Position numbers and translations under genes: made by a program
Part shown: one piece after another, positions 5,096 through 57,932 of the stretch
Layout of the letters: every line of letters starts with the position of its first letter
Position numbering within the stretch: position 1 is the stretch's first letter
DNA from: Bacteroidota bacterium
GTDB lineage: Bacteria; Bacteroidota; Bacteroidia; Bacteroidales; FEN-979
Reading direction: 5' to 3'
Length of the DNA stretch: 64,000 nt
Assembly (NCBI GenBank): GCA_026391735.1
Contig: JAPLDL010000016.1
Location: forward strand, 865-64,864
Notes under the pieces: generated by a model
What the model was told of the DNA's origin: nothing
The model's input: only the letters and a program-made list of their open reading frames with translations
Database searches by the model: none

Positions 5096-5111
5096 AATGA
5101 AAATGATTTAT

Positions 5112-5452: not shown

Positions 5453-6385
5453 TTGCCTGTCCTCGACCAAAGTCAATTCGAACAATATTCCTCCCTTGAG
5501 TTCCTGGCCAGGCAGGTCGTTGAAGGGTTTATCACAGGGCTTCACAAAAGCCCTTTTCACGGTTTTTCCGTTGAGTTTGCAGAACATCGGCTATATAATA
5601 CCGGAGAGTCTATCAGGAATATTGACTGGAAGCTATTCGGCCGCAGCGATCGTTTATACGTTAAACGGTATGAAGAAGAGACCAACCTGAGATGCCAGGT
5701 CTTCATCGATACTTCTTCCTCGATGTATTACCCGGTTATTAAAAATCCTGATATCCGGACCCCTAATAAGATCACTTTTGCAATTCACCTCACAGCAGCT
5801 CTGCTCTTTCTTTTAAAGAAACAGCGTGATGCCTCAGGTTTAAGTTTTTTTTCCGATGCTATCGAACTTCATACCCAATGTAAGTCAAGTTCGGTCCATT
5901 ATAAATATCTGTATCAGGAATTGGAAAACTTATTGCATCCCATTTCTCCTGAAACTCGAAAGAAAACTGGATTGGCCAGGGTGATCCATGAGCTGGCTGA
6001 AAGGATCCACCGGCGGTCTCTAGTGCTGATTTTCAGTGATATGTTTGAAAATTCATCCGAGACTGAGGAACTGTTTTCGGCACTTCAGCACCTGAGGCAT
6101 AACAAGCATGAGGTAGTTCTTTTTCATGTCGTCGACAAAAGGAAGGAGATGGCTTTTGATTTTGAAAACCGGCCGTATAAGTTCGTCGATATAGAATCGG
6201 GGCAGGAAATAAAGCTGTTTCCTGAAGAAGTAAGGCAGAAATATCTTTCTAGTATTGAAACATTCAAAAAGGACCTGATCCTTCGCTGCGGACAATATAA
6301 CATAGACCTCGTTGAGGCCGATATTAATGCTTCATTCCACCAGGTGCTTTTACCATACCTGGTGAAAAGAAGCAGGATGTATTAA
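5453..6385 (+). CDS. DUF58 domain-containing protein (vWA-like, MoxR/Bat-associated family)
   Basis: LEFLARQVVEGFITGLHKSPFHGFSVEFAEHRLYNTGESIRNIDWKLFGRSDRLYVKRYEEET is the characteristic DUF58 N-terminal block. The start codon is a non-ATG (TTG). Confidence 0.8.
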   Translation: MPVLDQSQFEQYSSLEFLARQVVEGFITGLHKSPFHGFSVEFAEHRLYNTGESIRNIDWKLFGRSDRLYVKRYEEETNLRCQVFIDTSSSMYYPVIKNPDIRTPNKITFAIHLTAALLFLLKKQRDASGLSFFSDAIELHTQCKSSSVHYKYLYQELENLLHPISPETRKKTGLARVIHELAERIHRRSLVLIFSDMFENSSETEELFSALQHLRHNKHEVVLFHVVDKRKEMAFDFENRPYKFVDIESGQEIKLFPEEVRQKYLSSIETFKKDLILRCGQYNIDLVEADINASFHQVLLPYLVKRSRMY

Positions 6386-6407
6386 TTCTCTGTTGCTTGA
6401 TTTTTCC

Positions 6408-6415
6408 TACCTTTG
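6408..6415 (+). promoter_or_regulatory. -7 promoter box (TACCTTTG) for valS
   Basis: TAnnTTTG match 25 nt upstream of the ATG at 6440. Confidence 0.5.
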
Positions 6416-6439
6416 CGCCCTGTTTTCAAAAAGCGTCTC

Positions 6440-20111: not shown

Positions 20112-20256
20112 AGAATTCAATATTTTATTGTTATTTACTTCGGCTACGCCGGATGACATCTTCCTGGTTTGAACCAGTTTCCGGCAGATGCCTCGATATA
20201 CACAAAGTAAGTGCCATTGTTTACTTCCTGACAAAATGACAATTATAGGTGGGTGG

Positions 20257-20368
20257 CTGGATGACTGGATAACTGGATGACTGGATGACTGGATAGCTGG
20301 ATGACTGGATGACTGGATAACTGGATAACTGGATAGCTGGATGACTGGATGACTGGATAGCTGGATGG
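20257..20368. repeat. 14 tandem copies of an 8-nt unit CTGGATRR
   Basis: Direct reading gives ctggatga ctggataa ctggatga ctggatga ctggatag ... ctggatgg, in the htpG/ilvE divergent intergenic region. Confidence 0.95.
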
Positions 20369-20464
20369 AAGGGAAAATTTTTGCACATCCCCGGTGGCGG
20401 TGAAAATAATTTTTTAAATTTACAAGGTCTTTGATGCTGAAAACTAACACCTAAAACTACTTAT

Positions 20465-42857: not shown

Positions 42858-45206
42858 TTATTCAGCTATTCTGAGCTTGGCGAATTTCAGAAGGAGCTGT
42901 TTCTGGCCTATACCGGGGAAAAGCACGGTAGCTTTCTTATTCGGGCCTATCCCTTCGAGATTAACTACTTTCCCTTTTCCGAAACGTTCATGTTCGACAT
43001 TCATCCCGGTCTTAATATCTTCGATCTCAGCCTGAGGAAGGGCTGATATTGCAGGATTAACGGGAGGGGCGACAGGCTTTTTGGGGACCGCTTTAGGGCC
43101 CTGTCCCGGTTCAGTTTGCAGAGGTTTCTGGCTGCCTGATTTCCTGGGAGGCAGGTTGAGTCCCTGGAGCATATTTGAAAAGTTATCCCCTGAATTAAAA
43201 CCTTCTTTTTTAGGCATTGATCTTTTTGGCAGATCGATCAGTTTTTCGGGGATCTCGCTGATAAACCTGCTGGGTTCGCACATGGTAAGGTTGCCCCAAC
43301 GGTAGCGGTTCTCAGCATAAGCCAGGGTGAGTTTAACCTCAGCCCTCGTTACCGCAACATAAAACAACCTCCGTTCCTCTTCAAGGTCGGTCCTGGAGTT
43401 CAGAGACTGAATGGATGGAAACAGGTTCTCTTCCAGTCCTGTAACAAACACATAAGGAAATTCAAGACCTTTGGCCTGGTGCACGGTCATCAGAACAACC
43501 CGGTCTTCATCGTCCTTGTTGCCAAGATCAGCATCGGTCAGCAGGGAGATATCCTGCATGAATTCATCGAGTGTGCGCACCACATTTTCTTCTATTTCAC
43601 CGGTTTCCATGTTGGTTCTGGGGGTTTCGGTGAATTCTTTGATGGCATTCAGGAGCTCTTCCATGTTCTCAAAACGGCTCACGCCTTCAGGGGTTTTATC
43701 TTCATGGAGTTCTTTGAGAAGACCTGAGGAAGCTGCAATATGTTTAGCCAGCTCGAAGGCGTTTTTTGTTTTCAGCAAGGCTCCGAAGCTTTTTATCATC
43801 GTGATAAACCCTGTGACTTTGGCCCAGGTATTATCGGGAAACTTCACCCCGGGAGATGGATCTTCTATAAGGTCGAACAAACTCTTTTTATGCTCATCAG
43901 CAAGAACGATCAACTTTTCAACCGTTGTTTTACCTATACCCCGGGCAGGAAAGTTGATGACGCGCAGCAATGCATCTTCGTCCCTTGGATTGATTGAGAG
44001 CCTGAAATAAGCCAGCATGTCCTTGATCTCTTTTCTCTGGTAGAAGGAAACTCCTCCGTATATCCGGCAGGGAATATTAAGCTTGCGTAGTGCTTCCTCC
44101 ATGACCCTCGACTGGGAATTTGTGCGGTACAGGATAGCAAATGATGCATTTGGCAACTGATGGTTCATCTTATTCTCGAAGATGGACTGGGCGACCAGGC
44201 TGCCTTCTTCATTATCGGTTGAGGCATGAAGCAGGGTGATCCTGGCCCCTTCGTCATTGTCGGTCCAGATCTCTTTGAATATCTGGTTTTTATTATTGGA
44301 GATGACCAGGTTGGCGGCTTCAACGATTGTCTTGGTGGAACGGTAATTCTGTTCAAGTTTAAAGACCTTATGGTCGGGATAGTCGCTCCTGAAGTTCAGG
44401 ATGTTTTGAATATTCGCTCCGCGGAAGGCGTAAATGCTTTGTGCATCATCGCCCACAACACAGAGGTTTTCATTGTTGGCGGCAAGTTTTTTAACAATGA
44501 GATATTGGGCATAGTTGGTATCCTGGTACTCATCTACAAGGATATACCTGAATTTTTGCTGGTATTTATACAATACGTCCGGAAAATCCCTTAAAAGGAC
44601 ATTCATGTTGAAGAGGAGGTCGTCGAAATCCATTGCAGATGAACGCATCAGGCGGTTCTGGTATTGCAGGTATATCCTACCGGTAAGAGGTTTTCCCGCT
44701 GCATTGTCATATTCCAGGATCTCCGGATTTGACTGGTATTCCTGTGAAGAAATCAGGCTGGTCTTGGCGGCGGATATCCTTTGCGTAATATAACCCGGCT
44801 GGTACGCTTTTTCGTCCAGGTTATTCTCCCTGATGAGGTTTCTTACAACCCTCTTCGAGTCATCCGAATCATAGATGGTATAGTTTGAAGGATACCCGAG
44901 ACGGTGACCTTCGATTCGGAGCACACGTGAGAACACAGAATGAAAGGTCCCCATCCATACGTTTTTTGCCTCGCTGCTGCCCACCAGGGTAAGGATTCGC
45001 TCGGTCATCTCACGGGCGGCCTTGTTGGTAAACGTAAGTGCCAGGATATGAAAAGGGTCAACGCCCAGCTCCAGAAGGTAGGCAACGCGAAAAGTCAGCA
45101 CCCTGGTCTTTCCCGATCCGGCGCCGGCAATGACCATGACCGGCCCTTCGGTTTCCACGACGGCCTTTCGTTGAGCTTCATTCAGTTTTTCAAGGATTTT
45201 CGACAT
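42858..45206 (-). CDS. ATP-dependent DNA helicase, UvrD/PcrA/Rep family
   Basis: 782 aa with helicase motifs I (AGAGSGKT), II (ILVDEYQDTN) and VI (VAVTRA), plus a C-terminal Tudor-like tail. Confidence 0.93.
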   Translation of the reverse strand: MSKILEKLNEAQRKAVVETEGPVMVIAGAGSGKTRVLTFRVAYLLELGVDPFHILALTFTNKAAREMTERILTLVGSSEAKNVWMGTFHSVFSRVLRIEGHRLGYPSNYTIYDSDDSKRVVRNLIRENNLDEKAYQPGYITQRISAAKTSLISSQEYQSNPEILEYDNAAGKPLTGRIYLQYQNRLMRSSAMDFDDLLFNMNVLLRDFPDVLYKYQQKFRYILVDEYQDTNYAQYLIVKKLAANNENLCVVGDDAQSIYAFRGANIQNILNFRSDYPDHKVFKLEQNYRSTKTIVEAANLVISNNKNQIFKEIWTDNDEGARITLLHASTDNEEGSLVAQSIFENKMNHQLPNASFAILYRTNSQSRVMEEALRKLNIPCRIYGGVSFYQRKEIKDMLAYFRLSINPRDEDALLRVINFPARGIGKTTVEKLIVLADEHKKSLFDLIEDPSPGVKFPDNTWAKVTGFITMIKSFGALLKTKNAFELAKHIAASSGLLKELHEDKTPEGVSRFENMEELLNAIKEFTETPRTNMETGEIEENVVRTLDEFMQDISLLTDADLGNKDDEDRVVLMTVHQAKGLEFPYVFVTGLEENLFPSIQSLNSRTDLEEERRLFYVAVTRAEVKLTLAYAENRYRWGNLTMCEPSRFISEIPEKLIDLPKRSMPKKEGFNSGDNFSNMLQGLNLPPRKSGSQKPLQTEPGQGPKAVPKKPVAPPVNPAISALPQAEIEDIKTGMNVEHERFGKGKVVNLEGIGPNKKATVLFPGIGQKQLLLKFAKLRIAE

Positions 45207-45221
45207 AATTTAAAATCCGGG

Positions 45222-45229
45222 CAAAGGTA
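45222..45229 (-). promoter_or_regulatory. -7 promoter box (TACCTTTG on minus strand) for the helicase gene
   Basis: The reverse complement of caaaggta lies 16 nt upstream of the start at 45206. Confidence 0.45.
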
Positions 45230-45278
45230 AAAGAATAGGACTTTGACCCGGGGTTTGTGAAAAACTATTTAATACAAT

Positions 45279-45398
45279 TCACTTACCAATTCCCTGTCGA
45301 CATTTACCCCTGTTTTATTCACACTTACCAATAGTAACCCTAACACAGTTACTTAGATACTGGTTACGCTTACCTGAATTTTGTTTACACTTACCAAT
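45279..45398 (+). promoter_or_regulatory. array of six ~21-bp-phased direct repeats (ACAYTTACC-type 9-mers): putative activator binding sites
   Basis: Copies start at 45279 TCACTTACC, 45300 ACATTTACC, 45321 ACACTTACC, 45345 ACAGTTACT, 45366 ACGCTTACC and 45387 ACACTTACC. Spacings are 21, 21, 24, 21 and 21 nt. Confidence 0.7.
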
Positions 45399-45427
45399 TC
45401 TTGCTTTACTTAAGGTTTTGACTGCCA

Positions 45428-45435
45428 TATTTTTG
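45428..45435 (+). promoter_or_regulatory. -7 promoter box (TATTTTTG) for the first island transcription unit
   Basis: TAnnTTTG match 36 nt upstream of the ATG at 45471 and exactly 40 nt downstream of the C of the proximal repeat (45388). Confidence 0.55.
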
Positions 45436-45470: not shown

Positions 45471-45851
45471 ATGAAATCAAACATATATAAGTTAGGGTGT
45501 ACATTATTAATAATATCATTTATAGTGTTCAGCTGCAGGAAAGATATCAATGAAGTTACTCCTGACCAGGGCTCCGGGAAAGTTAAATCGATGAGCGACA
45601 TAAAAGCTTCCTCCGACTTTAATTGGAAGACAACTCAGAATGTGGAACTGGAGCTCAGCGTACCTGCAAAATCTTCCCTGGTAATTAAATCTTCTTCCGG
45701 AGTGATTTTTCAAAAAGCATTACTTACACCCGGTGAATCTTATAAAACGGCAATTACAATCCCTAACTATATGCAGGATCTTACATTCGTTGTAAACGGT
45801 GTGTCAACAGTCCTGAAAATTGAGAATAACAGGGTTGTCTATTCTTTTTAA
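45471..45851 (+). CDS. small lipoprotein homologous to the N-terminal domain of the LruC-domain proteins
   Basis: Lipobox (IVFSC). The mature part aligns by eye with the N-terminal ~110 aa of the 51408 and 53799 products (C-x-KD, M.D...S.FNW..TQ.V.L, ending YSF/YTF/YVF). Confidence 0.65.
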   Translation: MKSNIYKLGCTLLIISFIVFSCRKDINEVTPDQGSGKVKSMSDIKASSDFNWKTTQNVELELSVPAKSSLVIKSSSGVIFQKALLTPGESYKTAITIPNYMQDLTFVVNGVSTVLKIENNRVVYSF

Positions 45852-45862
45852 ACAGCATAATA

Positions 45863-47899
45863 ATGAAAACAATAAATATTCCCCTGATAAACAAGTTTGC
45901 AGCTCTGCTTTTTGCGTCAATGTTGCTGCCGTTGTTAAGCATTGCAGATCAAAAATCAATCTGTGATATCTATAAAAGCAATGGAGGAGGATATTCCACC
46001 ACGATAACATCGGTTGTCTGCAATCAATCGGATCATTCCCATACCATTACCCTTCGTGTTGAGCATAATGGATGTGACGGGGCCAGTTGCCCTGCAATTA
46101 CCAGGTTTTGCGTTCAGGCTGCAGCCGGTACTTATTCGAATGTGGTCGTTAGTATACTGTATGGCGGAGTGACATTTACAGGGATTAACAATGGCCCGGT
46201 TTTGCCTGGCGACCCATGGAATGGATTCAGGATTGAAGGAATTACCGGCATTGGCAACGGTCATGCAGGAGTTTTTACAGTTTCCTACAAACTAACCGGC
46301 GCATTGCAGGACCAGCAGGTCTCGGCCAGGGCCGGAGCTCTTCTTCAGCTGGCATCATTTACAGCAGCTGATTTCCAGAGTGTCATGAACTGTTACAGCA
46401 CCGATTGCTCAGGTGGCGGACTAACTGGTCCTACAGCTAATAATGACAATGCGACCACCCCTCAGAACACCCCAATAACTTTAAATGTCCTGGCAAATGA
46501 TGTTGCAGGATCAGGCGCTCTCGTTCCCTCAACAGTTAGTTTTATCCCCGGAACAGCACCAAACCCGGGAACAGTTGGAACATTTACCGTAAATGGGGTA
46601 ACCGGAGCCGTTACATTTACCCCGGTAGCTGCTTATACAGGACTGGCTTCAATCCAGTATACAGTTTGCGATATGAACAGTTTATGCAGCACAGCAACTA
46701 TTACTATAAATATCACTGCTTCTCTTATTCCCCCGACAGCAATAAACGACAATGCAACAACAACCCTGAATACACCGGTAACCATTACTATTCTTACGAA
46801 TGATATTGCCGGTTCAGGAGCTTTAGTCCCTTCTTCAGTTACATTCGTCCCCGGCACTTCTCCACCGGTTTCCAAAGGAGTGTTTACCAAAAATAATCTT
46901 GGGATTGTAACCTTCACACCGGCAACCGGATACACAGGCCTTGCGACCATTCAATACACGGTGTGTGATGTAAACTCACTTTGCAGTTCTGCAACAATAA
47001 CAGTGACCATAAACGGTGGAGGAAATGACTCAGATGGCGACGGTTGTCCCGACGATGTGGACGATTATCCGAATGATCCTACCCGATGCTTTGATAACTA
47101 TTTCCCGGCTGCCGGTAATGGAACATTGGCTTATGAAGATCTCTGGCCTTCCAAGGGGGACTATGATTTCAATGATGTTATTCTTGATTACCGGTTTAAA
47201 ACCGTGACCAATTCTTCAAATAAAGTTGTTGAAATTTTTGCAACCTTTGTCCTGAAAGCCTCAGGCGCCGAGTTTCATAACGGCTTCGGGTTCCAGTTGC
47301 CAACCATTAACGTGGATCCCTCAACAATGACCGTGACAGGCTCTCATTTATCTCATTCTGTTGTCAATATTAACGCGAATGGCCTGGAAAGCGGACAAAC
47401 CAAACCAACCATTATTGTATTTGACGACTTTTTTGACCTGATGCCGAACCCTTCATGCGGCATTGGTGTGAATACATCCCCTGGATGTCCCTATGTGGCA
47501 CCGGTCACTATCTCGTTACATATTACTTTCAGCAGTCCGCTGTATCTGATGACTCAAACAAACGTTGAAAACTTCAACCCCTTCATCTTTGTCGGGCTTG
47601 ACAGGGGGCACGAGGTCCATTTGCCCGACTACCTTCCGACGAACCTTGCAAACCCTGCTTTTTTTGGCACTTATGATGACCAAACAAGCATTTCGGGAAA
47701 TAAATATTATAAAACCGTAAACAACCTTCCATGGGCTATTAACCTGATTGAAAGTTTTGCTTATCCGAAGGAAATGGTCGATATCATTAACTCGTATAAC
47801 CACTTCGTTGACTGGGTAACAAGCGGAGGCCTTTTATACCAGGACTGGTATATGGATAAACCAGGGTACCGCAATGCAACGAATATATATGTTCATTAG
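45863..47899 (+). CDS. LruC (DUF4842) domain-containing secreted protein with two cadherin/Ig-like ~100-aa repeats
   Basis: Type I signal peptide. Two repeats of NDNATT..NTP(I/V)T..(L/I)..ND(V/I)AGSGALVPS...FTP..GYTGLA(S/T)IQYTVCD.NSLCS.ATIT, then a Ca-binding-like DSDGDGCPDDVDDYPNDP motif. The LruC signature follows: LAYEDLWPSKGDYDFNDV ... FNPFIFV ... HEVHLPDY ... YYKTVNNLPWAINL. Confidence 0.85.
   Translation: MKTINIPLINKFAALLFASMLLPLLSIADQKSICDIYKSNGGGYSTTITSVVCNQSDHSHTITLRVEHNGCDGASCPAITRFCVQAAAGTYSNVVVSILYGGVTFTGINNGPVLPGDPWNGFRIEGITGIGNGHAGVFTVSYKLTGALQDQQVSARAGALLQLASFTAADFQSVMNCYSTDCSGGGLTGPTANNDNATTPQNTPITLNVLANDVAGSGALVPSTVSFIPGTAPNPGTVGTFTVNGVTGAVTFTPVAAYTGLASIQYTVCDMNSLCSTATITINITASLIPPTAINDNATTTLNTPVTITILTNDIAGSGALVPSSVTFVPGTSPPVSKGVFTKNNLGIVTFTPATGYTGLATIQYTVCDVNSLCSSATITVTINGGGNDSDGDGCPDDVDDYPNDPTRCFDNYFPAAGNGTLAYEDLWPSKGDYDFNDVILDYRFKTVTNSSNKVVEIFATFVLKASGAEFHNGFGFQLPTINVDPSTMTVTGSHLSHSVVNINANGLESGQTKPTIIVFDDFFDLMPNPSCGIGVNTSPGCPYVAPVTISLHITFSSPLYLMTQTNVENFNPFIFVGLDRGHEVHLPDYLPTNLANPAFFGTYDDQTSISGNKYYKTVNNLPWAINLIESFAYPKEMVDIINSYNHFVDWVTSGGLLYQDWYMDKPGYRNATNIYVH
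46430..47017 (+). repeat. two tandem ~100-aa Ig/cadherin-like coding repeats
   Basis: Repeat 1 starts at PTANNDNATT (46430) and repeat 2 at PPTAINDNATT (46730). The two are similar along their whole length. Confidence 0.8.
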
Positions 47900-47960
47900 A
47901 ATTTATCAGATATTTCATATACGATAAAAAATTAACAACCAATCAAAAACAACAGGCAAA

Positions 47961-49439
47961 ATGAAAAAAATCGCATTCATGTTAACAGGGCTTGGCTTAA
48001 TACTTGCATTTGCAGGTTGCAACAAGTTCAGAAATACCGAACCAGCCAGCCAGCAGTCAGCACAAGGCGTCAGCTTTGCTATTGCTCCAGGCCAGACCGG
48101 TGGGTTGAAATCAACGGCCAGCACCGATTGCTTCACTCAGACCGCCAATTACGCAAAAATCACCATTGACAGCAAACACTATATCAGGGCGATATTTTAC
48201 GTGGGTGGAATTCCGTACACAAACACTCTGCAACTGGGAACCGGCTTGCATACTCTGCAGGAATTTACCATATGGAGTGATAACCAGACCCCAAATGATT
48301 CTACCGATGATGCAATGCTTTCGGCAGTGCCTCACACAGGTTCGAATTATTCACCTTATGTTTCTTCGCCTCTGGATATTACATTTACAGTTGAAGCCTT
48401 TAAAAAGACCCAGCTTCCTGTAGAGGCAGTTTGTTATCAGCCAAGCAACTATAGCGATTTTGGTTTTACATTCTTCCAGATAGAACAGGTCACTGTTCGC
48501 GAACAACCGTTTTTCGGAGACCTCTGTATTAAAAGTATAGCTGATTATTCTATTACAGGTTCACCTTATCTTGCACAATCCAATGGTATACAGCTTGACC
48601 TTCCCGCAATCTTCAAAATTGAAGTATACAGGAACAATGTGTTGATGAATGTATTCAACAATGAAGCCTGGAACGGTGAAGGCCAGCCTCTGAAGGTTTT
48701 ATATGCCGACAGGCAGAATGTTACTGACAATTTCGAATTCAAACTCTATGTGAAAGTCAGGAAAGGTCCCGGTTTTGACTATGTTTATTTCAAGAGTTGG
48801 ACTTTTAGCGATGCTCAGGTGATCCCACAGAACAGCGACGGTGTTTGCGACTTTTCGATCGGATACTGCAACCCCAATGCCGACTATGTTCTTCCTCCAT
48901 GGATCAACCTGCCCAGTACAGCGACTTATACCATCACAGGCGGTTATGCTCCGGGTTCACAGGGAGGATATGTTGACGCAAACCTCACAAATGTTCTTTC
49001 GGGATATGAAATTGTAAACGGGACTTTTGCTTCCTGGTGCTGCGACCACCAGACCACAATTAATACGGGAACGGCTTATAATATGAACGTTTATTCCTCT
49101 CTTTATCCTGCTCTGCTTCCTGCTTTTGCGCAGACTATTCCCTGGGATAAGATCAACTGGCTGTTGAACCACCTTGACTGGTACCCCGGTTATCATTGGT
49201 ATGATCTGCAGGGGGCTATCTGGTTGTTTGACAATCCTGCATGGGATGGTACAGCACATAGCGGGGTACCCAATCTTACCACGGTTATGACCCAGATGCA
49301 TGCAGATGCCAATACTTACGGAGCTAATTTCAAGGTTCCGACCGGCGGATGGGCTTCGGTAGTCTTTATTCCCGTAGGAACACCACCCAATGCACCAACA
49401 CCTACCGTTCAGACCATGTTTATTAAACTTGATCCCTGA
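47961..49439 (+). CDS. lipoprotein of unrecognised family, paralog 1, with candidate thioester-domain-like C-terminal region
   Basis: Lipobox LAFAGC, 492 aa. About 85-90% identical by eye to the 49699 product. C-terminal third contains WCCDH (C360/C361) and DLQGAIW (Q417). No TAnnTTTG box upstream, so it is probably co-transcribed with 45863..47899. Confidence 0.85.
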   Translation: MKKIAFMLTGLGLILAFAGCNKFRNTEPASQQSAQGVSFAIAPGQTGGLKSTASTDCFTQTANYAKITIDSKHYIRAIFYVGGIPYTNTLQLGTGLHTLQEFTIWSDNQTPNDSTDDAMLSAVPHTGSNYSPYVSSPLDITFTVEAFKKTQLPVEAVCYQPSNYSDFGFTFFQIEQVTVREQPFFGDLCIKSIADYSITGSPYLAQSNGIQLDLPAIFKIEVYRNNVLMNVFNNEAWNGEGQPLKVLYADRQNVTDNFEFKLYVKVRKGPGFDYVYFKSWTFSDAQVIPQNSDGVCDFSIGYCNPNADYVLPPWINLPSTATYTITGGYAPGSQGGYVDANLTNVLSGYEIVNGTFASWCCDHQTTINTGTAYNMNVYSSLYPALLPAFAQTIPWDKINWLLNHLDWYPGYHWYDLQGAIWLFDNPAWDGTAHSGVPNLTTVMTQMHADANTYGANFKVPTGGWASVVFIPVGTPPNAPTPTVQTMFIKLDP

Positions 49440-49475: not shown

Positions 49476-49510
49476 AGAGGCTATTCCGAAAGGATGGCCT
49501 CTTTTTTGTT
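49476..49510 (+). terminator. rho-independent terminator after paralog 1
   Basis: agaggctattcc-gaaa-ggatggcctct imperfect hairpin followed by tttttgtttt. Confidence 0.6.
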
Positions 49511-49514
49511 TTCC

Positions 49515-49568
49515 ACATTTATGGATTATTTAGCCACACTTACCAAGAAACAATCATCACTTACTTGT
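49515..49568 (+). promoter_or_regulatory. three 21-bp-phased repeats of the island motif
   Basis: 49515 ACATTTATG, 49536 ACACTTACC and 49557 TCACTTACT, spaced 21 and 21 nt. Confidence 0.65.
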
Positions 49569-49597
49569 TATCGCTTTCCCCGGTTATCCAGTCGGCT

Positions 49598-49698: not shown

Positions 49699-51177
49699 AT
49701 GAAAAAGCTAACATTAATTTTTACAGTTCTTGGTTTAATACTTGCCATTGCAAGTTGTAACAAGATCAAGAATGATGCCCCCACGGCCCAGCAGGCTTCT
49801 CAGGGCGTGAGTTTCTCTATTGCTCCCGGACAAACCGGAGGGCTTAAATCTTCAGCCAGTACCGACTGTTTCCAAACAACGGCAAACTACGCAAAGATCA
49901 CTATTGACGGCAAACATTACGTAAGAGGTATTTTTTACGTTGATGGCAAACCGTATACGAATACCCTTCAGTTGGGGACAGGCGTCCACACATTGCAGGA
50001 ATTTGCCATTTGGAGCGATCACCAGACTCCCAATGATTCAACCGATGATTTAATGCTTTCGGCTGTACCTCATACCGGATCAAATTTTGCACCCTATGTT
50101 GCATCACCATTGGATATTACTTTCAACGTGGATGCCTTTAAAAAGACCCAGGTTCCGGTTGAAGCTGTTTGCTATCAGCCAAGCAATTATACCGATTTCG
50201 GTTTTACATTTTTCCAGATCGAAGAAGTGACACTCCGCGAGCAGCCTTTCTTCGGTGACCTTTGTATTAAAAGCATTGCCGATTATTCAATCCAGGGCTC
50301 GCCTTATCTTGCACAGTCCAACGGGATTCAGCTTGATCTTCCTGCAATCTTTAAGATTGAAGTATACAGGAACAATGTTCTTATGAATGTATTCAACAAT
50401 GAAGCATGGAACGGTGAAGGACAACCATTAAAAGTATTGTATGCCGACCGTAAGGGAATTACCGACAATTTCGAACTTAAACTCTATGTTAAAGTCAGGA
50501 AAGGCCCTGGATTTGATTATGTATACTTCAAGAGCTGGACTTTCAGCGACGCCCAGTTGATCCCTCAGAACGCCGATGGAGTTTGTGACTTCTCAATTGG
50601 ATATTGTAACCCCAATGCCGACTATGTTATGCCCCCGTGGATCAATTTACCTTCTACTTGCACATACACTATTACAGGTGGTTATGCCCCAGGTTCACAG
50701 GGTGGGTATGTGGATGCAAATCTCACCAGCGTATCAACCGGGTATGAAATTGCCAACGGGTTGTTTGCTTCATGGTGTTGTGACCATCAGACCACGATCA
50801 ATGTTGGCCAGCCATATAATATGAATGTATATTCATCCTTGTATCCCGACCAGCTTCCTGCATTTGCACAAACCAGGCCATGGGATAAGTACAACTGGCT
50901 TCTGAACCATCTTGACTGGTATCCCGGATATCATTGGTACGATCTCCAGGGAGCATTATGGCTGATGGAATCTCCTGCATGGAACGGTGTAAGTGAAGGG
51001 GGAGTTCCCAATGTTAATGCCATGATGACACAAATGAAAAATGATGCCATTGCATACGGCAGCGGGTATAAAGTTCCTACCGGCGGATGGGCAGCAGTTG
51101 TCTTCATTCCTGTTGGAACCCCAGGTAATGCAGCAAACCCGACCATCCAGACAATGTTCATTAAACTTGACCCTTGA
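49699..51177 (+). CDS. lipoprotein of unrecognised family, paralog 2, with candidate thioester-domain-like C-terminal region
   Basis: Lipobox LAIASC, 492 aa, colinear with paralog 1. WCCDH and DLQGALW are conserved at identical positions. Confidence 0.85.
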   Translation: MKKLTLIFTVLGLILAIASCNKIKNDAPTAQQASQGVSFSIAPGQTGGLKSSASTDCFQTTANYAKITIDGKHYVRGIFYVDGKPYTNTLQLGTGVHTLQEFAIWSDHQTPNDSTDDLMLSAVPHTGSNFAPYVASPLDITFNVDAFKKTQVPVEAVCYQPSNYTDFGFTFFQIEEVTLREQPFFGDLCIKSIADYSIQGSPYLAQSNGIQLDLPAIFKIEVYRNNVLMNVFNNEAWNGEGQPLKVLYADRKGITDNFELKLYVKVRKGPGFDYVYFKSWTFSDAQLIPQNADGVCDFSIGYCNPNADYVMPPWINLPSTCTYTITGGYAPGSQGGYVDANLTSVSTGYEIANGLFASWCCDHQTTINVGQPYNMNVYSSLYPDQLPAFAQTRPWDKYNWLLNHLDWYPGYHWYDLQGALWLMESPAWNGVSEGGVPNVNAMMTQMKNDAIAYGSGYKVPTGGWAAVVFIPVGTPGNAANPTIQTMFIKLDP

Positions 51178-51210
51178 TAACAATTTGAGTTCCGGATCAT
51201 TATAAATAGA

Positions 51211-51248
51211 AACAAGACACCGGTGTAAATGCCGGTGTCTTGTTTTAT
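51211..51248 (+). terminator. rho-independent terminator after paralog 2
   Basis: aacaagacaccgg-tgtaaatg-ccggtgtcttgtt perfect stem followed by a T-run. Confidence 0.8.
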
Positions 51249-51316: not shown

Positions 51317-51345
51317 TATCAATTGACATGGCAGGTGCCTGTAAT

Positions 51346-51407: not shown

Positions 51408-53552
51408 ATGAAAACAAAAGTTTTATTATTATTTGTTTTGGCATCGTCCGTAATATTTATATCAGGATGTCATAAGGACTATTCGACTACGCCGAAAGCC
51501 AAAACAATGGATGATCTCCAGATCTCCCAATCCTTTAACTGGGAAATGACCCAGGAAGTCACATTGAATATCGGGATGGACATTCCCGCTGTGACATTCC
51601 AGTATAATAAAGTAAATGTATACCTAGCTGATCCGACAAAAGGCGGGGAACTGGTTTACCAGGGATGGACAGGAAATTCCAATCCGATGCTTGCGAAGGT
51701 CAGGATCCCGACAGGTGTTTCACAACTTTGGCTTCAGTTGATTCCATACAGCGGTGTTGGTCAGATTGCCAGCGTTCCTGTGAATGCCTCAATTTCTTAT
51801 ACGTTTGCAGGTGCAACCAAAATGAAAAGTGCTAATGTGCTCGGACCAGATTGTTCTGCAGCCACTGCACCCTACACTCTCATCGGAAGCGCAAATTTTA
51901 CAATTGATGATGGCCATACTTATTATATCATTGCCTCATATACCGGAGACATCACAGTTAAAGACGGCACCTTGCAAATCTGCGGAACTTATACAACCGG
52001 GACTATCGATCTTAAACCAAACAATGGAAAGACTTCCACACTTAAGGTAAGTTCCACAGGTACCATTGGAACAGTTTCTGCACCTGTTACGATTAAGGAA
52101 AGCAAAGACGGGTTGTTCCAGAATTGGGGTTCCTGCCATATTGCCGGTGTTTTTACACCCAATGACGAGGTGGAGAATTACAACCTCATGACTGTTTATG
52201 GCCAGATGAATATGAATGGAAGCTCAGGCAACTTCATCAATGGTGGCGGAGCCTATATGCATATCGAAGATAAATGGAACGTGATCAACCAGGCAACAAA
52301 CCTGGGTACTATTGAAGTTGAAGGAGACATGGAATGCAACCATTCGATTTTCCTGAACAGCTGTGCACTGATAGTTCATGGGAATTTCCATCTCAATAAC
52401 TGTGAATTTACAAACCAGACCGGTTACCTGAAATGTTTTGAAGAAGCTTATATGCAGGGCGGAACCGGATTTATGAAATTATACAACGGTTCAATGATCT
52501 CCACGAAGGATCTCAGGGTCAATGCTGATGTGACAGGTTATGGAACCCGTAATGAAATAAAGGTGACCGATATGTTGCGTTTCGATGGACCCAAAGTTAT
52601 CACAGGCCCTATTGAAACAGCTCAGACCAATGGAGTAATGACTTCAGGCGACATGACAAACTTTACAGGTGGTGCAACCTTTGTAAGTTTTGCCAACATA
52701 CTCAATACCATTCCCACGAGCGAATGTAATCCCGAGGGTGTGAATCCTCCGCCGGCCCCTGTCGGAAACGTATTCACAGGTACTGCTGTATATGAAGATC
52801 TCTGGCCTGAGAAAGGTGACTATGATCTGAACGACCTCGTGATGTATTATAAGTTCACATTAACCACAAATGTCCAGAATAAAGTAACGGACATTCAGAT
52901 AAAGCTTTATGTAAAAGCTGCAGGCGCTTCATTCCAGAACGGATTTGGAATCCAGTTTGATAACCTGGTTCCGGGCGATATCGCCTCGGTTACAGGCTAT
53001 AATCTGAAGTACAATTACATCACTCTTAGCGCAAACGGAACGGAATCGGGCCAGGCTAAAGCCGTTATCATTCCTTTCGACAATACCGATAACGTGATCC
53101 ACAGAGTAACCCCTGTCTTCTTCAATACCGTGATGGGAGCTCCTGTTGGAACAGCCGATACCGTTACCTTAAGTATCCATCTTACAACTCCTATGCTGAC
53201 AACGGCTCTTGGTACACCACCTTACAACCCATTCCTTATCAGAAATATGGAAAGGGTTGCTGAGATCCACCTCCCGAATTACGTGCCTACAACACTGGCA
53301 CAAAACTGTCCTTATTTTGGCACTGGTGATGATAATACTCAACCCGGAATCGGAAGATATTATAAAACAACCAACAATCTGCCCTGGGCACTGAATATCC
53401 CGGTCAATTTTGATTACCCCTGGGAAAAGGTAAGTGTTCTTAGCGCATACAATTATTTTGCAACCTGGGCAGAATCGGGCGGTACGCTTTACACCGACTG
53501 GTATAAAAATCTGGCAGGTTACAGGAATTCGGCCAATATCTGGCATCCGTAA
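51408..53552 (+). CDS. LruC (DUF4842) domain-containing lipoprotein with beta-helix-like middle region
   Basis: Lipobox FISGC and an N-terminal domain shared with 45471 and 53799. The middle ~300 aa are repetitive and G/N/T-rich (beta-helix-like). C-terminal LruC signature: AVYEDLWPEKGDYDLNDLV ... YNPFLI ... AEIHLPNY ... YYKTTNNLPWALNIP. Confidence 0.85.
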   Translation: MKTKVLLLFVLASSVIFISGCHKDYSTTPKAKTMDDLQISQSFNWEMTQEVTLNIGMDIPAVTFQYNKVNVYLADPTKGGELVYQGWTGNSNPMLAKVRIPTGVSQLWLQLIPYSGVGQIASVPVNASISYTFAGATKMKSANVLGPDCSAATAPYTLIGSANFTIDDGHTYYIIASYTGDITVKDGTLQICGTYTTGTIDLKPNNGKTSTLKVSSTGTIGTVSAPVTIKESKDGLFQNWGSCHIAGVFTPNDEVENYNLMTVYGQMNMNGSSGNFINGGGAYMHIEDKWNVINQATNLGTIEVEGDMECNHSIFLNSCALIVHGNFHLNNCEFTNQTGYLKCFEEAYMQGGTGFMKLYNGSMISTKDLRVNADVTGYGTRNEIKVTDMLRFDGPKVITGPIETAQTNGVMTSGDMTNFTGGATFVSFANILNTIPTSECNPEGVNPPPAPVGNVFTGTAVYEDLWPEKGDYDLNDLVMYYKFTLTTNVQNKVTDIQIKLYVKAAGASFQNGFGIQFDNLVPGDIASVTGYNLKYNYITLSANGTESGQAKAVIIPFDNTDNVIHRVTPVFFNTVMGAPVGTADTVTLSIHLTTPMLTTALGTPPYNPFLIRNMERVAEIHLPNYVPTTLAQNCPYFGTGDDNTQPGIGRYYKTTNNLPWALNIPVNFDYPWEKVSVLSAYNYFATWAESGGTLYTDWYKNLAGYRNSANIWHP

Positions 53553-53585
53553 TCCTAAACAATCTTAATTTCAGCTTTTGGTTAA

Positions 53586-53617
53586 GACGGCTCTCTTCGG
53601 AGGGCCGTCTTTTTTTT
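53586..53617 (+). terminator. rho-independent terminator
   Basis: gacggctctc-ttcg-gagggccgtc followed by T8. Confidence 0.85.
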
Positions 53618-53693: not shown

Positions 53694-53722
53694 AGTAGCT
53701 TTTTGTTTGGTAATACAGGCCC

Positions 53723-53730
53723 TAATTTTG
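53723..53730 (+). promoter_or_regulatory. -7 promoter box (TAATTTTG) for the third LruC-domain gene
   Basis: TAnnTTTG match, 40 nt downstream of the proximal repeat (53683). TTTG elements lie at 53702-53709. Confidence 0.55.
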
Positions 53731-53798
53731 CAATTAATTATTATTCAGTAGATAATTATAAGCTAATTAGTCAAAATAACAAAATTAAAATACCATAC

Positions 53799-56783
53799 AT
53801 GAAACGTATTCCAGTTATCTTCATAGTCATTCTGAGTCTTTTTTTCTCACTCAGCAGCTGTAAAAAAGATCTTACTTCCAGGGACACTTCATCATCCAAT
53901 CCGACGAAGTTTACTGATCTTAAAACCGATCCGTCATTCACTTTTGAGAACTTCACAACAATAAACGCAAATATCAGTGTGAATACCTCTCAGGGCACAA
54001 CCATGAACATTATCCAGGTATACCAGGATGATCCCGGTTATGGCAAGCTCATTGCAACAGGCGTTTCTTACGGAAGTCAGCCATATAGTAATACTCTCCG
54101 CATTCCAAAGGCAGTTAAAACCCTTTACATCGCCTATGCCTCTTCTGACGGCAAACACGAGTCGGCTACTATAAGTATTAACGGGACTGACGTCGTTTAT
54201 GTGTTCGGAAAGACCAAATCAGGAGAGAATGCAGAAAACAGCTGCGGAACCGGAACTGCGATCACAACAAACCAGAGCAGCGTAACGGTGGGCTCAGGTC
54301 AAACTTATTATGTACCTTTCGGTTCAACCGTTACTATTTCTAATTTAACTGTCAGTACCGGAGGAACATTCAATAATTGCGGTACTGTAACAGTGAATGG
54401 ATTAAATGTAAGCTCTTCCAACGGAACAATCAATAATAACGGGACATTCACAATTACAGAGGATGTTGATTTTAAAGGCATATTAGTCAATAATGCCACT
54501 CTTAATGTCACCGGGAATCATGAATATAAAACTAATTCGGGTGGAAGTGTGATCAACAATTGCACCATGTATGTTACCGGGGATGTGTTTACCACTGGCA
54601 GCGGTAGTTTTACTAATAACGGATATCTTAAAATTACAGGAAACGAAGGAAGTATTAAAACAACAGGTGGTGGGATTCTTACTTTAGGCCCCCAAAGTTT
54701 GCTTGATACTCCGTATTTTGACCTTGAAGGTTCATGCAACGGGCCAGGGACCGCTTCTTATGCAGGCATCAAGACCCATGACGGAAAAACCACAGGGGGC
54801 GCAGGCATCTCAGGTTATGTGGACTTCTGTGCAAGCGGAACGATCCACCCTGATGGGGCAACTTATGGCCCACATGTGACATTCTGCACTCATTCAGTAA
54901 GCATTCCCAGTTGCTCAAACCCAATTGCCCCTGTTATTACCAGTGCACTTACCGCCGCTGGAACCGCAGGCCAGGCAATCACACCTTACGTGATTACAGC
55001 CACTGGAACCGAGCCCATTACATACACTGCAACAAATTTGCCTTCGGGTTTGACATACAATAGCAGTACTCATACTATCTCGGGAACACCGGCTGCTGCA
55101 GGTTCATTTAATATTACTCTGAAGGCGGATAACGCTGTAGGTACTGATACGAAGACCCTTGTGTTAACAGTTGGCGCTCCCGGCAATCCTCCTGCTATAA
55201 CCAGTCCAATGACTGCAGCAGGAACAGCCGCTCAGCCTTTCAGCTATACGATTACTGCTACGGGAACCAATACCCAGGCTTGTCCGCTGACTTTCAGTGC
55301 AAACAACCTGCCAGCAGGACTTACTTTGCAGGGTGGAAACATCATTGGAGGATCCCCTTCAGCCGCAGGAACATATGATATCACTATGACTGCGACCAAC
55401 TGTAACGGTACTGACACCAAACACCTGATCCTGACTGTCGGAGCTGCAGGAGTTGCCCCTGTCATTACGAGCCCGTTAACCGCCAGTGGCACTGCAGGAC
55501 AGGTATTTACACCTTATACGATGACATCAACAGGTACTACCCCTGTGACCTTAAATGCCACTAATTTGCCTGCCGGACTTTCATATGATAATTCAACTCA
55601 CCAGATAACCGGGAATCCAACAACACCTGGGACTACCAGTGTTATATTAACTGCATCGAATTTTTACGGAACTGATGTAAAAACACTTGTTATCACTATT
55701 GCCCAGGGAGCAGGAACACCTCCTGCCATCCAGCCCCCGCTCACTGCCACAGGTACAGTGGGATCCCCGTTCACACCGTATTTAGTGTCAGCCACCGGAA
55801 CATCTCCGATAACATTTTCTGCAACACAGCTACCCGATGGATTGTCATTTGATCCTATCTCGCACACAATAACAGGCACACCTACCTCTGCCGGTACATT
55901 TAATGTCCCTCTTACTGCGACGAACAATGTCGGAGTCGATAATAAAACCCTTGTGATAACAATAACCCAGGGCGGAGGTGGTTCGTTTTACTCGTACTAT
56001 CCGAACTCAGTGGATTACGGCACCTTCGTATTTGAAGACCTCTGGCCCTATTACGGAGATTATGACTGTAACGACCTTGTTGTGAACTTCCAATATAAAA
56101 TAACTTCCAATGAACAGAACCAGATCACTGATATCCAGGCAACCTTTATCTTTAAAGCTGCAGGAGCTACATTCAATAACGGTTTCGGGATTGTTTTAAA
56201 TACAAATCCGTCAAACATAGCTAGTGTTACCGGTTGTACTCAATATGGAAGCGCGGTCAGTTATGATCCAAAAGGATTTGAAGCTGGTCATTCCAATATG
56301 ACGGTTATTGTCCCGGTTGATGCCGTTAACACCATGTTTGGCAGGGGATTGGTCAATACAATAATTGGAAATGGATATATTCAGCCAGTCACAAAGGTTA
56401 TTAATATACATTTTGCAACTCCTCAGGCTAGTGTGGGCTCACTGCCATGGAATCCATTTATTTTCCAGGACCAGGTTCGCAGCCATGAGATCCACATGAA
56501 GAATAAAGCCAATACCGACTTTGCTGATATGAGTTTATTCAATACAGGCAATGATGGTTCCAATTCCGGACAGGGTGTTTATTATGCCTCACCAACCGGA
56601 CTGCCCTGGGCATTTGAGATCCCTGTTAATTTTGATTATCCGGTTGAAAAAACAGATATTCTCAACTGCTATAATCATTTTGCCGAATGGGCTACATCAC
56701 CGCAGGGACCTTCTAACCCTTATAATGACTGGTATATGGACAGCCCGGGATACAGGAATACAGCAAATCTCTGGCATCCGTAA
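53799..56783 (+). CDS. LruC (DUF4842) domain-containing lipoprotein with beta-helix-like region and four He_PIG-type Ig repeats
   Basis: ATG at 53799 gives MKRIPVIFIVILSLFFSLSSC (lipobox). The N-terminal domain and beta-helix-like region resemble 51408. Four ~88-aa repeats follow (P(A/P)(V/A)ITS.LTA.GTAGQ.F.PY...ATG..P(I/V)T..A.NLP.GL....T..I.G.P...G......L.A.N..G.D.K.L.(L/I)T(V/I)). C-terminal LruC signature: FVFEDLWPYYGDYDCNDLV ... WNPFIF ... HEIHMKN ... LPWAFEIP. Confidence 0.85.
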   Translation: MKRIPVIFIVILSLFFSLSSCKKDLTSRDTSSSNPTKFTDLKTDPSFTFENFTTINANISVNTSQGTTMNIIQVYQDDPGYGKLIATGVSYGSQPYSNTLRIPKAVKTLYIAYASSDGKHESATISINGTDVVYVFGKTKSGENAENSCGTGTAITTNQSSVTVGSGQTYYVPFGSTVTISNLTVSTGGTFNNCGTVTVNGLNVSSSNGTINNNGTFTITEDVDFKGILVNNATLNVTGNHEYKTNSGGSVINNCTMYVTGDVFTTGSGSFTNNGYLKITGNEGSIKTTGGGILTLGPQSLLDTPYFDLEGSCNGPGTASYAGIKTHDGKTTGGAGISGYVDFCASGTIHPDGATYGPHVTFCTHSVSIPSCSNPIAPVITSALTAAGTAGQAITPYVITATGTEPITYTATNLPSGLTYNSSTHTISGTPAAAGSFNITLKADNAVGTDTKTLVLTVGAPGNPPAITSPMTAAGTAAQPFSYTITATGTNTQACPLTFSANNLPAGLTLQGGNIIGGSPSAAGTYDITMTATNCNGTDTKHLILTVGAAGVAPVITSPLTASGTAGQVFTPYTMTSTGTTPVTLNATNLPAGLSYDNSTHQITGNPTTPGTTSVILTASNFYGTDVKTLVITIAQGAGTPPAIQPPLTATGTVGSPFTPYLVSATGTSPITFSATQLPDGLSFDPISHTITGTPTSAGTFNVPLTATNNVGVDNKTLVITITQGGGGSFYSYYPNSVDYGTFVFEDLWPYYGDYDCNDLVVNFQYKITSNEQNQITDIQATFIFKAAGATFNNGFGIVLNTNPSNIASVTGCTQYGSAVSYDPKGFEAGHSNMTVIVPVDAVNTMFGRGLVNTIIGNGYIQPVTKVINIHFATPQASVGSLPWNPFIFQDQVRSHEIHMKNKANTDFADMSLFNTGNDGSNSGQGVYYASPTGLPWAFEIPVNFDYPVEKTDILNCYNHFAEWATSPQGPSNPYNDWYMDSPGYRNTANLWHP
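54927..55970 (+). repeat. four tandem ~88-aa putative-Ig (He_PIG/dystroglycan-type) coding repeats
   Basis: Repeat starts read at 54927 (APVITS), 55188 (PPAITS), 55455 (APVITS) and 55719 (PPAIQP). Confidence 0.8.
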
Positions 56784-56817: not shown

Positions 56818-56847
56818 ACGGCTCTCCTCGGAGGGCCGTCTTTTTTT
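56818..56847 (+). terminator. rho-independent terminator (near-identical copy of 53586-53617)
   Basis: acggctctc-ctcg-gagggccgt followed by T7. Confidence 0.85.
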
Positions 56848-56904: not shown

Positions 56905-57645
56905 ATGAAAATCACATTTTTCCAGGTCCTTAATTATTCGCTGATCTTTTTTGCCATGATCCTTTTTATAAGGTATTTATGGGATATAATCTTTAACCCA
57001 GATTACGAGCCTGCAGCCTGGAAAGAAGCTAAGAAGGAAGGTAGGCTGACGGGTCTGCGGAAGGTTGAAAAACAATACAAGGATAAAGTCAGGTTTTTCA
57101 ATTTCTGGTTCCAGGTCGAACGGCTTAGAAAGGAACAGGTCGCCGGAGCTATGGCCGAACTGGGAGTATACCAGGGTGAAAGTGCCAGGATTTTACACTA
57201 TCTTGACCCTGCACGGAAGCTCTATCTTTTTGATACCTTCGAAGGGTTTAAAAACCAGGATCTTGCGATAGAAAAAGGAGTAGCGGCAACATACACCAGC
57301 AACAATTTTGCCGACACCAGTATTAATAAGGTACTCAGATTTATCGGCGGAAACGGGAACATATCGGTGCAACAAGGGTATTTTCCGGCCTCTGCCTTAA
57401 AACTGGTTCATGAGAAGTTTGCCCTGGTTAATATAGATGTTGACTTATACAACCCAACCAAAGCCGGTCTTGAATTTTTCTACCCGCGCCTTTGTCCGGG
57501 AGGAATCATCCTGGTACATGACTATAATTTTAAATGGGAGGGGGTGATCAGGGCTGTTGATGAGTTTTGCAAAACCATACCCGAATCCATGGTTATTATC
57601 CCTGACAGAGAAACTACCGTGATGATCATCCGCAGAAAATTCTGA
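56905..57645 (+). CDS. TylF/MycF-like class I SAM-dependent methyltransferase with N-terminal TM helix
   Basis: ATG at 56905; the track start at 56809 would read through the upstream terminator. Hydrophobic N-terminus (NYSLIFFAMILFIRYLW), then ELGVYQGESA, LFDTFEGF and VDVDLYNPTKAGLEFFYPRLCPGGIILVHDY, typical of the macrocin-O-methyltransferase family. Confidence 0.8.
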   Translation: MKITFFQVLNYSLIFFAMILFIRYLWDIIFNPDYEPAAWKEAKKEGRLTGLRKVEKQYKDKVRFFNFWFQVERLRKEQVAGAMAELGVYQGESARILHYLDPARKLYLFDTFEGFKNQDLAIEKGVAATYTSNNFADTSINKVLRFIGGNGNISVQQGYFPASALKLVHEKFALVNIDVDLYNPTKAGLEFFYPRLCPGGIILVHDYNFKWEGVIRAVDEFCKTIPESMVIIPDRETTVMIIRRKF

Positions 57646-57809
57646 TAGCTGGATAGCTGGATAGCTTGAAAGTTGGATAGCTTGATAACTGGATAGCTGG
57701 ATAACTGGATAGCTGGATAGCTTGATAACTGGATAGCTGGATAGCTTGATAACTGGATAGCTGGATAACTTGATATCTGATTATCCAGTTATCCCGCTAT
57801 CCAGTTATC
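57646..57809. repeat. ~16 tandem 8-nt units (CTGGATAG / CTGGATAA / CTTGATAA) followed by an inverted partial copy
   Basis: Direct reading from tagctggatagctggatag... to ...ctggataacttgatatctga, then ttatccagttatcccgctatccagttatc (57781-57809), which can pair with the preceding units. Confidence 0.95.
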
Positions 57810-57932
57810 TTCGTGAAGCGAAATCCGCAATCAATCATCATTGATTATCAGGATAAAGAGGGACTTTCTGATTTTTTTTCATCCGGTTTGTAAAAAAAAC
57901 ATTAAATCTCTTGTTTGAAAGAAAATAAATTG

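Follow-up and report, generated by a model that had tools for sequence, protein, structure and literature searches.

Upstream of a cluster of LruC-domain surface-lipoprotein genes in a Bacteroidota bacterium (contig JAPLDL010000016.1), six copies of a nine-nucleotide direct repeat close to ACAYTTACC follow one another at intervals of about 21 nt, and the question raised by this arrangement is whether the repeats control the genes behind them and, if so, which class of regulator they would serve. The analysis covers the window, that is, the whole stretch of 64,000 nt (positions 865 to 64,864 of the forward strand of the contig), together with related loci from other sequence collections. The repeats are, with near certainty, a real and conserved cis-regulatory element, and they probably represent operator sites at which a LytTR-family (AlgR/AgrA/LytR) protein activates transcription; the best candidate is the response regulator of a two-component system whose genes lie elsewhere in the genome.

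Phased boxes before four promoters

The six 9-mers described in the original prediction are all present at the positions given there, on the + strand and at successive intervals of 21, 21, 24, 21 and 21 nt, inside a 264-nt intergenic region bounded by a uvrD-type helicase gene (42858-45206, - strand) and an open reading frame (ORF) for a 126-aa lipoprotein (45471-45851, + strand). They form two triplets whose starts are 66 nt apart, a distal one at 45279-45329 (TCACTTACC at 45279, ACATTTACC at 45300 and ACACTTACC at 45321, in 21-nt steps) and a proximal one at 45345-45395 (ACAGTTACT at 45345, ACGCTTACC at 45366 and ACACTTACC at 45387), with 24 nt from the last distal to the first proximal 9-mer. 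The start of the final 9-mer lies 41 nt before a Bacteroidota-type -7 box of the TAnnTTTG form, which was likewise present where it had been predicted (TATTTTTG, 45428-45435, + strand) and shows 94% pairwise identity in orthologues; this promoter is referred to here as P1. The primary-sigma promoter of Bacteroidota is said, after work associated with Bayley in 2000 and Chen in 2007, to combine a -33 TTTG with a -7 TAnnTTTG about 19 nt apart. The earlier claim that P1 lacks a good -33 element at the expected distance holds in that the element is weak (TTTA, 45405-45408, + strand, 9 nt past the proximal 9-mer), but the element is not absent, sitting 19 nt before the -7 box. The divergent uvrD gene has a probable -7 box on the - strand at 45224-45231 (CAAAGGTA on the + strand, TACCTTTG on the - strand), which is invariant in a four-sequence alignment, and the distal P1 triplet is therefore placed between two divergent promoters.

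The repeats are far more frequent than composition would lead one to expect, exact ACAYTTACC being found eight times in the window against 0.88 expected, a count that none of 100 shuffles reached. A weight matrix trained on the six P1 sites only was used to score 21-nt-phased triples over the whole window and on both strands, and the top three triples outside the training region started at 49515 (score 29.7), 51263 (21.0) and 53640 (18.7), compared with maxima in 100 shuffled windows that averaged 8.8 (sd 3.2) and never exceeded 18.4. All three are intergenic in the same + strand cluster, each just past a strong intrinsic terminator, and in each the last 9-mer starts exactly 41 nt 5' of a TAnnTTTG box, at 49598, 51346 and 53723, respectively. 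The promoter P2 (49515-49605) thus comprises ACATTTATG at 49515, ACACTTACC at 49536, TCACTTACT at 49557, a -33-like TTTC at 49575 and the -7 box TATATTTG; P3 (51263-51353) comprises a weak ACATTTTAT at 51263, ACATTTACA at 51284, ACGCTTACT at 51305, TTG at 51323 and the -7 box TAATTTTG; and P4 (53640-53730), built on the ACACATAC variant of the box, comprises ACACATACT at 53640, ACAGATACA at 53661, ACACATACG at 53682, TTTTTG at 53700 and again TAATTTTG. The recurrence of one promoter design at P1 to P4, with triplets placed after terminators, indicates that the cluster consists of four transcription units of the same design. A generic sigma-70 promoter scan, which found 30 promoters against 29.3 expected, was uninformative for Bacteroidota.

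The anatomy of this design was examined in a position profile anchored on the -7 box and built from nine promoters outside the training set, namely P2 to P4 of the window, two from the related contig L012 and four from L013. Averaged over these promoters, the matrix score peaked at offsets -62 (6.7 bits), -41 (6.6) and -83 (3.0), the next best offset scoring -3.0 and the background -11.6 (sd 3.5), and these three peaks point to the triplet as the functional unit. In ten aligned promoters, 32 nt separate the end of the proximal box from the -7 box, and a TT(G/T), read by eye, occurs 9 nt past the proximal box, with a single promoter (L013, 9942) in which the boxes are shifted by 1 nt away from the -7 box. 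TAnnTTTG occurs at each of the four window promoters, and their -33 positions, 17-20 nt before it, read TTTA, TTTC, TTG and TTTTTG in the order P1 to P4, the G being missing from P1 and P2. The information content of 39 sites reveals a single contiguous core at positions 1-8, ACAcTTAC, of about 10 bits, in which C2 and T6 are invariant and of which ACACTTAC, ACACATAC, ACGTTTAC and ACACTTAT are variants; the remainder of the 21-nt unit is essentially unconserved and holds no second conserved block.

Conservation of the boxes and of the locus

Seven related contigs are syntenic with the locus and share the gene order grpE/dnaJ, EPSP-synthase-like, DUF4290 and uvrD on one side of the cluster and methyltransferase followed by rpsL-rpsG-fusA on the other. 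The 492-aa protein encoded in the cluster, whose relatives are confined to uncultured Bacteroidota, has identities of 89%, 80%, 76%, 59% and 56% in these comparisons, and the numbers of LruC and 492-aa cassettes differ among the syntenic relatives. Phased boxes are present in all of them, each set 41 (±1) nt from a -7 box. The six P1 copies are kept in L008 and L009 with the spacing 21/21/24/21/21, while L007 and L010/L011 retain the proximal triplet only, an alignment gap of about 63 columns replacing the distal one, and the distal triplet accordingly appears to be an optional extra module. The proximal triplet is conserved in all four aligned relatives, and in the P1 alignment the 8-nt cores reach 86% pairwise identity against 51% for the spacers. 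A search with the 126-aa protein matched only contigs of 1-2.3 kb, in all of which the intergenic region is 100% identical. The motif was not found at two distant, non-syntenic homologues of the 492-aa gene (L014 and L015); a PF06580 kinase beside the L015 homologue has a GerE-type and not a LytTR regulator as its partner, and the case is uninformative. In the more distant relatives, additional distal triplets occur 387 nt (L012, 6930-7021) and 122 nt (L013, 1777-1827) upstream of the proximal ones; that of L012 is followed at 41 nt by TACTTTTA, which could be a second promoter or one that has decayed; no evident ORF follows it.

These data bear directly on the possibility that the repeats are a non-functional by-product, either a decaying 21-bp minisatellite or the scars of duplications in a fast-evolving intergenic region. 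In favour of such an origin, Tandem Repeats Finder reports an array of 21-nt period at 45364-45409, gain or loss of the distal triplet has involved a single block of about 63 nt, and other simple tandem arrays exist in intergenic regions of this genome. Nevertheless, a decaying tandem duplication would be expected to show the opposite of the observed excess of core over spacer conservation, and the boxes recur at four non-homologous promoters of the window and in distant relatives, always at 41 nt from the -7 box. This explanation, contradicted by the fixed position as well as by the conservation of the cores over the spacers, is very improbable and was rejected. Two intergenic 8-nt tandem-repeat arrays (GATAGCTG / TTATCCAG type) are located at 57644-57810, between the methyltransferase gene and rpsL and with about 17 copies at 57644-57779, and at 20265-20390, between htpG and a divergent gene of 340 aa whose counterparts beside htpG in related metagenome loci carry PCRF/RF-1 domains.

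The cluster had also been described as an island, a view that does not survive the comparison with relatives. The uvrD-cluster-rpsL neighbourhood is kept in the seven related contigs and the GC content matches that of the flanks, so that this is a chromosomal site, conserved though variable, and not an inserted mobile island. In the same way, multiple direct repeats at the apparent edge of such an island might suggest the end of a mobile element, with arm sites for a transposase or integrase, or the iterons of a replication origin; this is extremely improbable in view of the synteny from uvrD through the methyltransferase gene to rpsL and of a GC content like that of the surroundings. No transposase, integrase or replication-initiator gene was found among the scanned ORFs of the cluster and its flanks, no inverted box set closes the cluster, and the boxes, all on the + strand, recur before each internal transcription unit. 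Synteny and internal recurrence contradict this reading, which was rejected as well.

Association with LytTR genes and the probable class of the regulator

The shape of the boxes gives the first indication of the protein that may recognise them. A contiguous core of 8-9 nt is followed by an unconserved spacer of 12 nt, with a spacing of 21 nt at P1 to P4 and in the relatives and of 20-21 nt in the metagenomic cases and in locus L245 described below; the single core, with no second block, fits a 9-bp LytTR box and not the bipartite site of a protein with two helix-turn-helix motifs. The LytTR consensus that goes by the names of Nikolskaya and Galperin reportedly reads [TA][AC][CA]GTTN[AG][TG], and the box agrees with 6-7 of the 9 positions of this loose consensus and has an AC..CTTA core in common with the Streptococcus mutans boxes ACCACTTAT and ACATCTTAT. 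Published LytTR operators are made up of 9-bp repeats with a 12-bp spacer (PMC2766830), and LytTR repeats, of which these S. mutans boxes are published examples, tend to lie about 10 bp (range 4-11) upstream of the -35 element (PMC6193735).

A scan of metagenomes with the pattern ACRNTTAC-N13-WCRNTTAC-N33-TANNTTTG yielded a complete list of 108 stretches, which fall into 73 clusters by sequence; about 45 are intergenic, and about 29 lie inside long ORFs and are taken as chance. Genes with Response_reg and LytTR domains directly adjoin six independent intergenic clusters, and about 11 further intergenic clusters adjoin genes of LruC clusters. The motif, in the form of pairs of boxes, stands upstream of operons comprising a liaF-like gene, a PF06580 kinase and a LytTR regulator in L200/L144/L163 and in L213/L229, which is the classic layout of autoregulation, whereas in L145, L153, L242 and L172 it is found just 3' of a kinase-LytTR gene pair, before the neighbouring gene. 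In a Pfam census, which took in 179 ORFs up to 3.5 kb away from 46 representative matches, LytTR was counted six times, the PF06580 kinase five times, DUF4842 five times and HSP90 four times, and among the 25 most frequent families per batch no other DNA-binding family was recurrent near these matches; in a control of 250 kb of Bacteroidota sequence not chosen by the motif, no LytTR gene was found. The recurrence of LytTR genes, and of no other DNA-binding family, near the matches supports the LytTR assignment at the level of the class.

Between the regulators of L145, L242 and L172 the identity is 41-63%, and the operators adjacent to their genes are triplets like those of the window, suggesting that triplets are a trait of one LytTR subfamily. 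In L145 and L242 the regulator is encoded beside a Reg_prop/Y_Y_Y kinase, which has about 1000 aa in L145 and in full-length homologues, the L242 kinase gene being cut at the contig end; the L172 fragment does not reach the kinase partner of its regulator. A search for homologues of the L242 regulator returned more than 7000 matches at E<1e-20, none of them assignable to the lineage of the window. Three such homologues (L244, L245 and L246), picked for their long contigs and not by the motif, served as a test of prediction, and all show the same kinase-regulator arrangement. In L245, the interval between the regulator gene and a VIT/VWA gene contains ACACTTATT-20-ACACTTATC-21-ACACTTATT and, exactly 41 nt on, TATATTTA, the pairs of this operator being the top-scoring phased pairs in the 16.7-kb locus; the test was therefore a clear success at one of the three homologue loci. 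A scan of a genome collection for three ACRNNTAC boxes at 21 nt gave at least 120 matches, and those listed were almost only chance occurrences and perfect 21-nt tandem repeats, none of them with a -7 box at +41. A match in L115 proved to be a signal-peptide coding artefact, and among the matches listed only L120 looked genuine.

Two of the loci recovered in these scans have further peculiarities. In L120 (SACF01000101.1, 478-640), a perfect triplet of ACACTTACT, ACATTTACC and ACACTTACT is located upstream of an ORF for a beta-helix surface protein, in a contig labelled as an alphaproteobacterial metagenome-assembled genome; the product of the upstream ORF ends in a type-IX-secretion-like C-terminal tail, and the contig is probably a mis-binned Bacteroidota sequence. 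In the Bacteroidota-like L145 (oriented 6319-6720), the Reg_prop/Y_Y_Y kinase and LytTR regulator genes are followed by the triplet operator and by an ORF of 70 aa with an N-terminus resembling a double-glycine leader (MKLESLKSSKFKVLKNESLAKITGG...), a layout that recalls the peptide quorum-sensing and bacteriocin loci of Firmicutes.

The principal alternative is an activator from a different family whose sites are likewise direct repeats phased at 21 bp, chiefly an AraC/XylS-type regulator or a hybrid two-component system (HTCS). Such regulators and systems are very abundant in Bacteroidota. Moreover, in Bacteroides thetaiotaomicron, direct repeats placed on average 21 bp apart make up the 16 HTCS motifs that have been predicted (PMC3878776). 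The description of a 21-nt phasing as the classic LytTR architecture fits the geometry, but AraC-type regulators share this phasing, which by itself does not decide the family. The predicted HTCS half-sites, however, measure 12-16 bp (PMC3878776), in contrast to the one contiguous block of 8-9 nt and the unconserved spacer found here; the recurrent neighbours that the census shows in its 25 most frequent families per batch include LytTR, six times, but no AraC-type family; no AraC-type gene is present in the cluster or in its syntenic relatives; and the cluster is not a polysaccharide-utilisation locus. Taken together, these points make an AraC-type activator unlikely.

A negative or architectural role has also to be considered, in which a repressor or a nucleoid-type protein would polymerise on the phased boxes and silence the surface-protein genes, which would be expressed once that protein was removed. 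Arrays of three to six phased sites would be well suited to cooperative polymerisation, silencing is common at variable surface-protein loci, and the distal P1 triplet has a position between divergent promoters that would be compatible with such a role. On the other hand, every box is upstream of the -33 element, at a distance that is fixed to the precision of a helical turn and leaves the core promoter and the start site uncovered, the weak -33 elements of P1 and P2 are those predicted by dependence on an activator, and the same geometry precedes LytTR operons, for which the documented rule is positive autoregulation (PMC6193735). Silencing through these boxes is, accordingly, decidedly unlikely.

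Several observations weigh against operators of the LytTR class and have to be set beside the evidence that favours them. The cognate regulator was not found, and neither Pfam scans of 30 ORFs nor a LytTR profile search of all ORFs detected a LytTR or other transcription-regulator gene in the 64-kb window, in agreement with the original prediction that no regulator gene is present there. Canonical LytTR operators have two repeats, whereas three or six are present here; the box departs from the reported family consensus at positions 4 and 8; and the period of about 21 bp is shared, as noted above, with predicted operators of Bacteroides AraC-type HTCS (PMC3878776). The LytTR genes that accompany the motif belong to organisms other than this one, the census took in the 25 most frequent families per batch and might have missed a lone AraC-type neighbour, and two of the three homologue loci not chosen by the motif, L244 and L246, show no comparable motif. 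Nevertheless, the geometry fits published operators, and the motif adjoins LytTR genes in six metagenome contexts and at one of the three homologue loci; the proposal that the boxes are sites of this family is thus supported at the class level, and from it we infer that a LytTR protein binds them.

The genes of the cluster, a possible mechanism and comparison with known systems

The first of the four transcription units (45471-49439, + strand, terminator 49476-49502) encodes the 126-aa lipoprotein, a 678-aa LruC/DUF4842 protein with Big_9/cadherin domains and a 492-aa lipoprotein assigned to no Pfam family; the second (49699-51177, + strand, terminator 51210-51245) encodes a second 492-aa paralogue; the third (51408-53552, + strand, terminator 53584-53611) a 714-aa LruC/DUF4842 lipoprotein; and the fourth (53703-56783, + strand, terminator 56818-56839) a 1026-aa LruC/DUF4842 protein with He_PIG and PKD domains, listed from a TTG codon. 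The listed start of the last (53703) is upstream of the P4 -7 box (53723-53730), and the true start codon must therefore be downstream of the promoter. Two exact copies of ACATTTACC, 33 nt apart, occur within the 678-aa LruC gene (46580-46621), a spacing unlike that of the operators. Past the terminator of the fourth unit comes the gene for a TylF-like methyltransferase; its listed TTG-start ORF of 278 aa, compared with 246-247 aa in relatives, includes the strong terminator-like hairpin at 56818-56839, which places the true start further downstream and makes the gene a separate transcription unit without phased boxes.

Some features of the htpG region may be mentioned as well. The htpG gene of the window (- strand) is listed as an ORF of 746 aa starting at a far-upstream GTG, but the ATG at 20111-20109 is where the conserved N-terminus, MQKGKINVQTENIFPIIKKF, starts, so that about 340 nt listed as coding (20109-20450) are in reality intergenic. 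Three metagenome loci, L154 (518-900), L165 (8385-8760) and L197 (- strand, oriented 4741-5100), carry a pair of boxes of the ACACTTACT type, a -7 box at 41 nt and an ORF of about 40 codons for a small hydrophobic peptide, followed by a terminator, upstream of htpG. These loci share the LemA/TPM/htpG/OMP-decarboxylase gene set of the window, which has neither the box pair nor the small ORF and has the 8-nt array in that place.

For the LytTR operators proposed here, a mechanism may be outlined in which a LytTR regulator, when phosphorylated, would bind along one face of the helix to three phased boxes, whose positions would be about -91, -70 and -49 on the assumption that the -7 box begins near -12, and would bring in RNA polymerase or shift its position at a promoter that, with its weak -33 element, would be poor by itself. 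Four such promoters, each after an intrinsic terminator, would bring the four LruC/DUF4842 lipoprotein transcription units under one signal, and the optional second triplet of P1 might raise occupancy or widen the range of the response. More tentatively, the regulator may belong to a large, uncharacterised LytTR subfamily of Bacteroidota for which the three-box operator is the standard and whose kinases of about 1000 aa have periplasmic Reg_prop/Y_Y_Y parts resembling the glycan sensors of HTCS. Its binding stoichiometry or its cooperativity would then be unlike that of a dimer on two repeats, and in this freshwater lineage the whole hypervariable LruC locus, with one promoter per cassette, might stand under a single external signal, promoter strength being tuned by gain or loss of whole 63-nt triplet modules.

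Few classes of response regulator are as numerous in Bacteroidota as the LytTR class, and in the literature searched no LytTR operator or regulon of this phylum has been defined, save a predicted 11+11 'LRS-like' case in B. thetaiotaomicron. The locus provides a testable operator model, consisting of an ACAcTTAC box, a 21-nt phasing, a triplet unit and a fixed distance of 41 nt to the -7 box, which transfers across genomes, finds in metagenomes both the operons of the regulators themselves and targets, and is usable for the prediction of LytTR regulons in uncultured Bacteroidota. The model also links the expression of a variable cluster of LruC-domain surface lipoproteins to signal transduction.

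Among known systems, the LytTR operators of Firmicutes resemble the present ones in their direct repeats with a period of about 21, located just 5' of a sub-optimal, activator-dependent promoter, and the metagenomic relative L145 even has a gene for a peptide with a double-glycine-like leader behind the same operator. In AgrA-type boxes position 4 is said to be a G, where the window box has C. Other differences from these systems are the three boxes, or twice three, instead of two, the Bacteroidota -33/-7 promoter, the LruC-domain surface-lipoprotein targets and a regulator gene that is not adjacent. As published, the Firmicutes operators (AgrA P2/P3, ComE, PlnC/PlnD and SilA) are imperfect direct repeats of 9-10 bp separated by 11-13 bp, and the promoter just behind them is sub-optimal (PMC2766830, PMC4227749). 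The HdrRM and BrsRM operators of S. mutans, ACCACTTAT-12-ACCGCTTAT and ACATCTTAT-12-ACCTCTTAT, are placed 4-11 bp, typically 10, 5' of the -35 element and mediate positive autoregulation (PMC6193735); the AC..CTTA core is common to both sides, 9 nt separate the repeats from the -33 element here, and two of the metagenomic operons have the autoregulatory layout. In HdrRM and BrsRM, however, the LytTR protein is paired with a membrane inhibitor and there is no histidine kinase, in contrast to the operons of liaF-like, PF06580 kinase and receiver-LytTR genes found here.

Within the phylum itself, the LRS-like operators of Bacteroides are composed of 11-bp repeats and 11-bp spacers (PMC6193735), and the operators of the AraC-type HTCS of Bacteroides resemble those of the window in being direct repeats of about 21 bp on one helix face, before clusters of surface or outer-membrane genes in Bacteroidota (PMC3878776), while differing from them in half-sites of 12-16 bp, as opposed to an 8-9-nt core, and in that LytTR rather than AraC-type genes recur near the present boxes. 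The BtsSR and YpdAB systems of enterobacteria pair a PF06580-type kinase with a LytTR regulator and have a conserved motif in the target promoter (PMC5552118). The kinases beside the motif are of the PF06580 type here too, but the enterobacterial systems differ in their box sequences, their two repeats, their transporter targets and their pyruvate signal, whereas the Bacteroidota kinases have a LiaF partner, TPR or Reg_prop/Y_Y_Y sensor parts. In summary, direct-repeat operators of LytTR regulators are a well-known principle, and the triplet unit, the fixed relation to the -33 and -7 elements and the LruC targets are variations on it and not a new kind of system.

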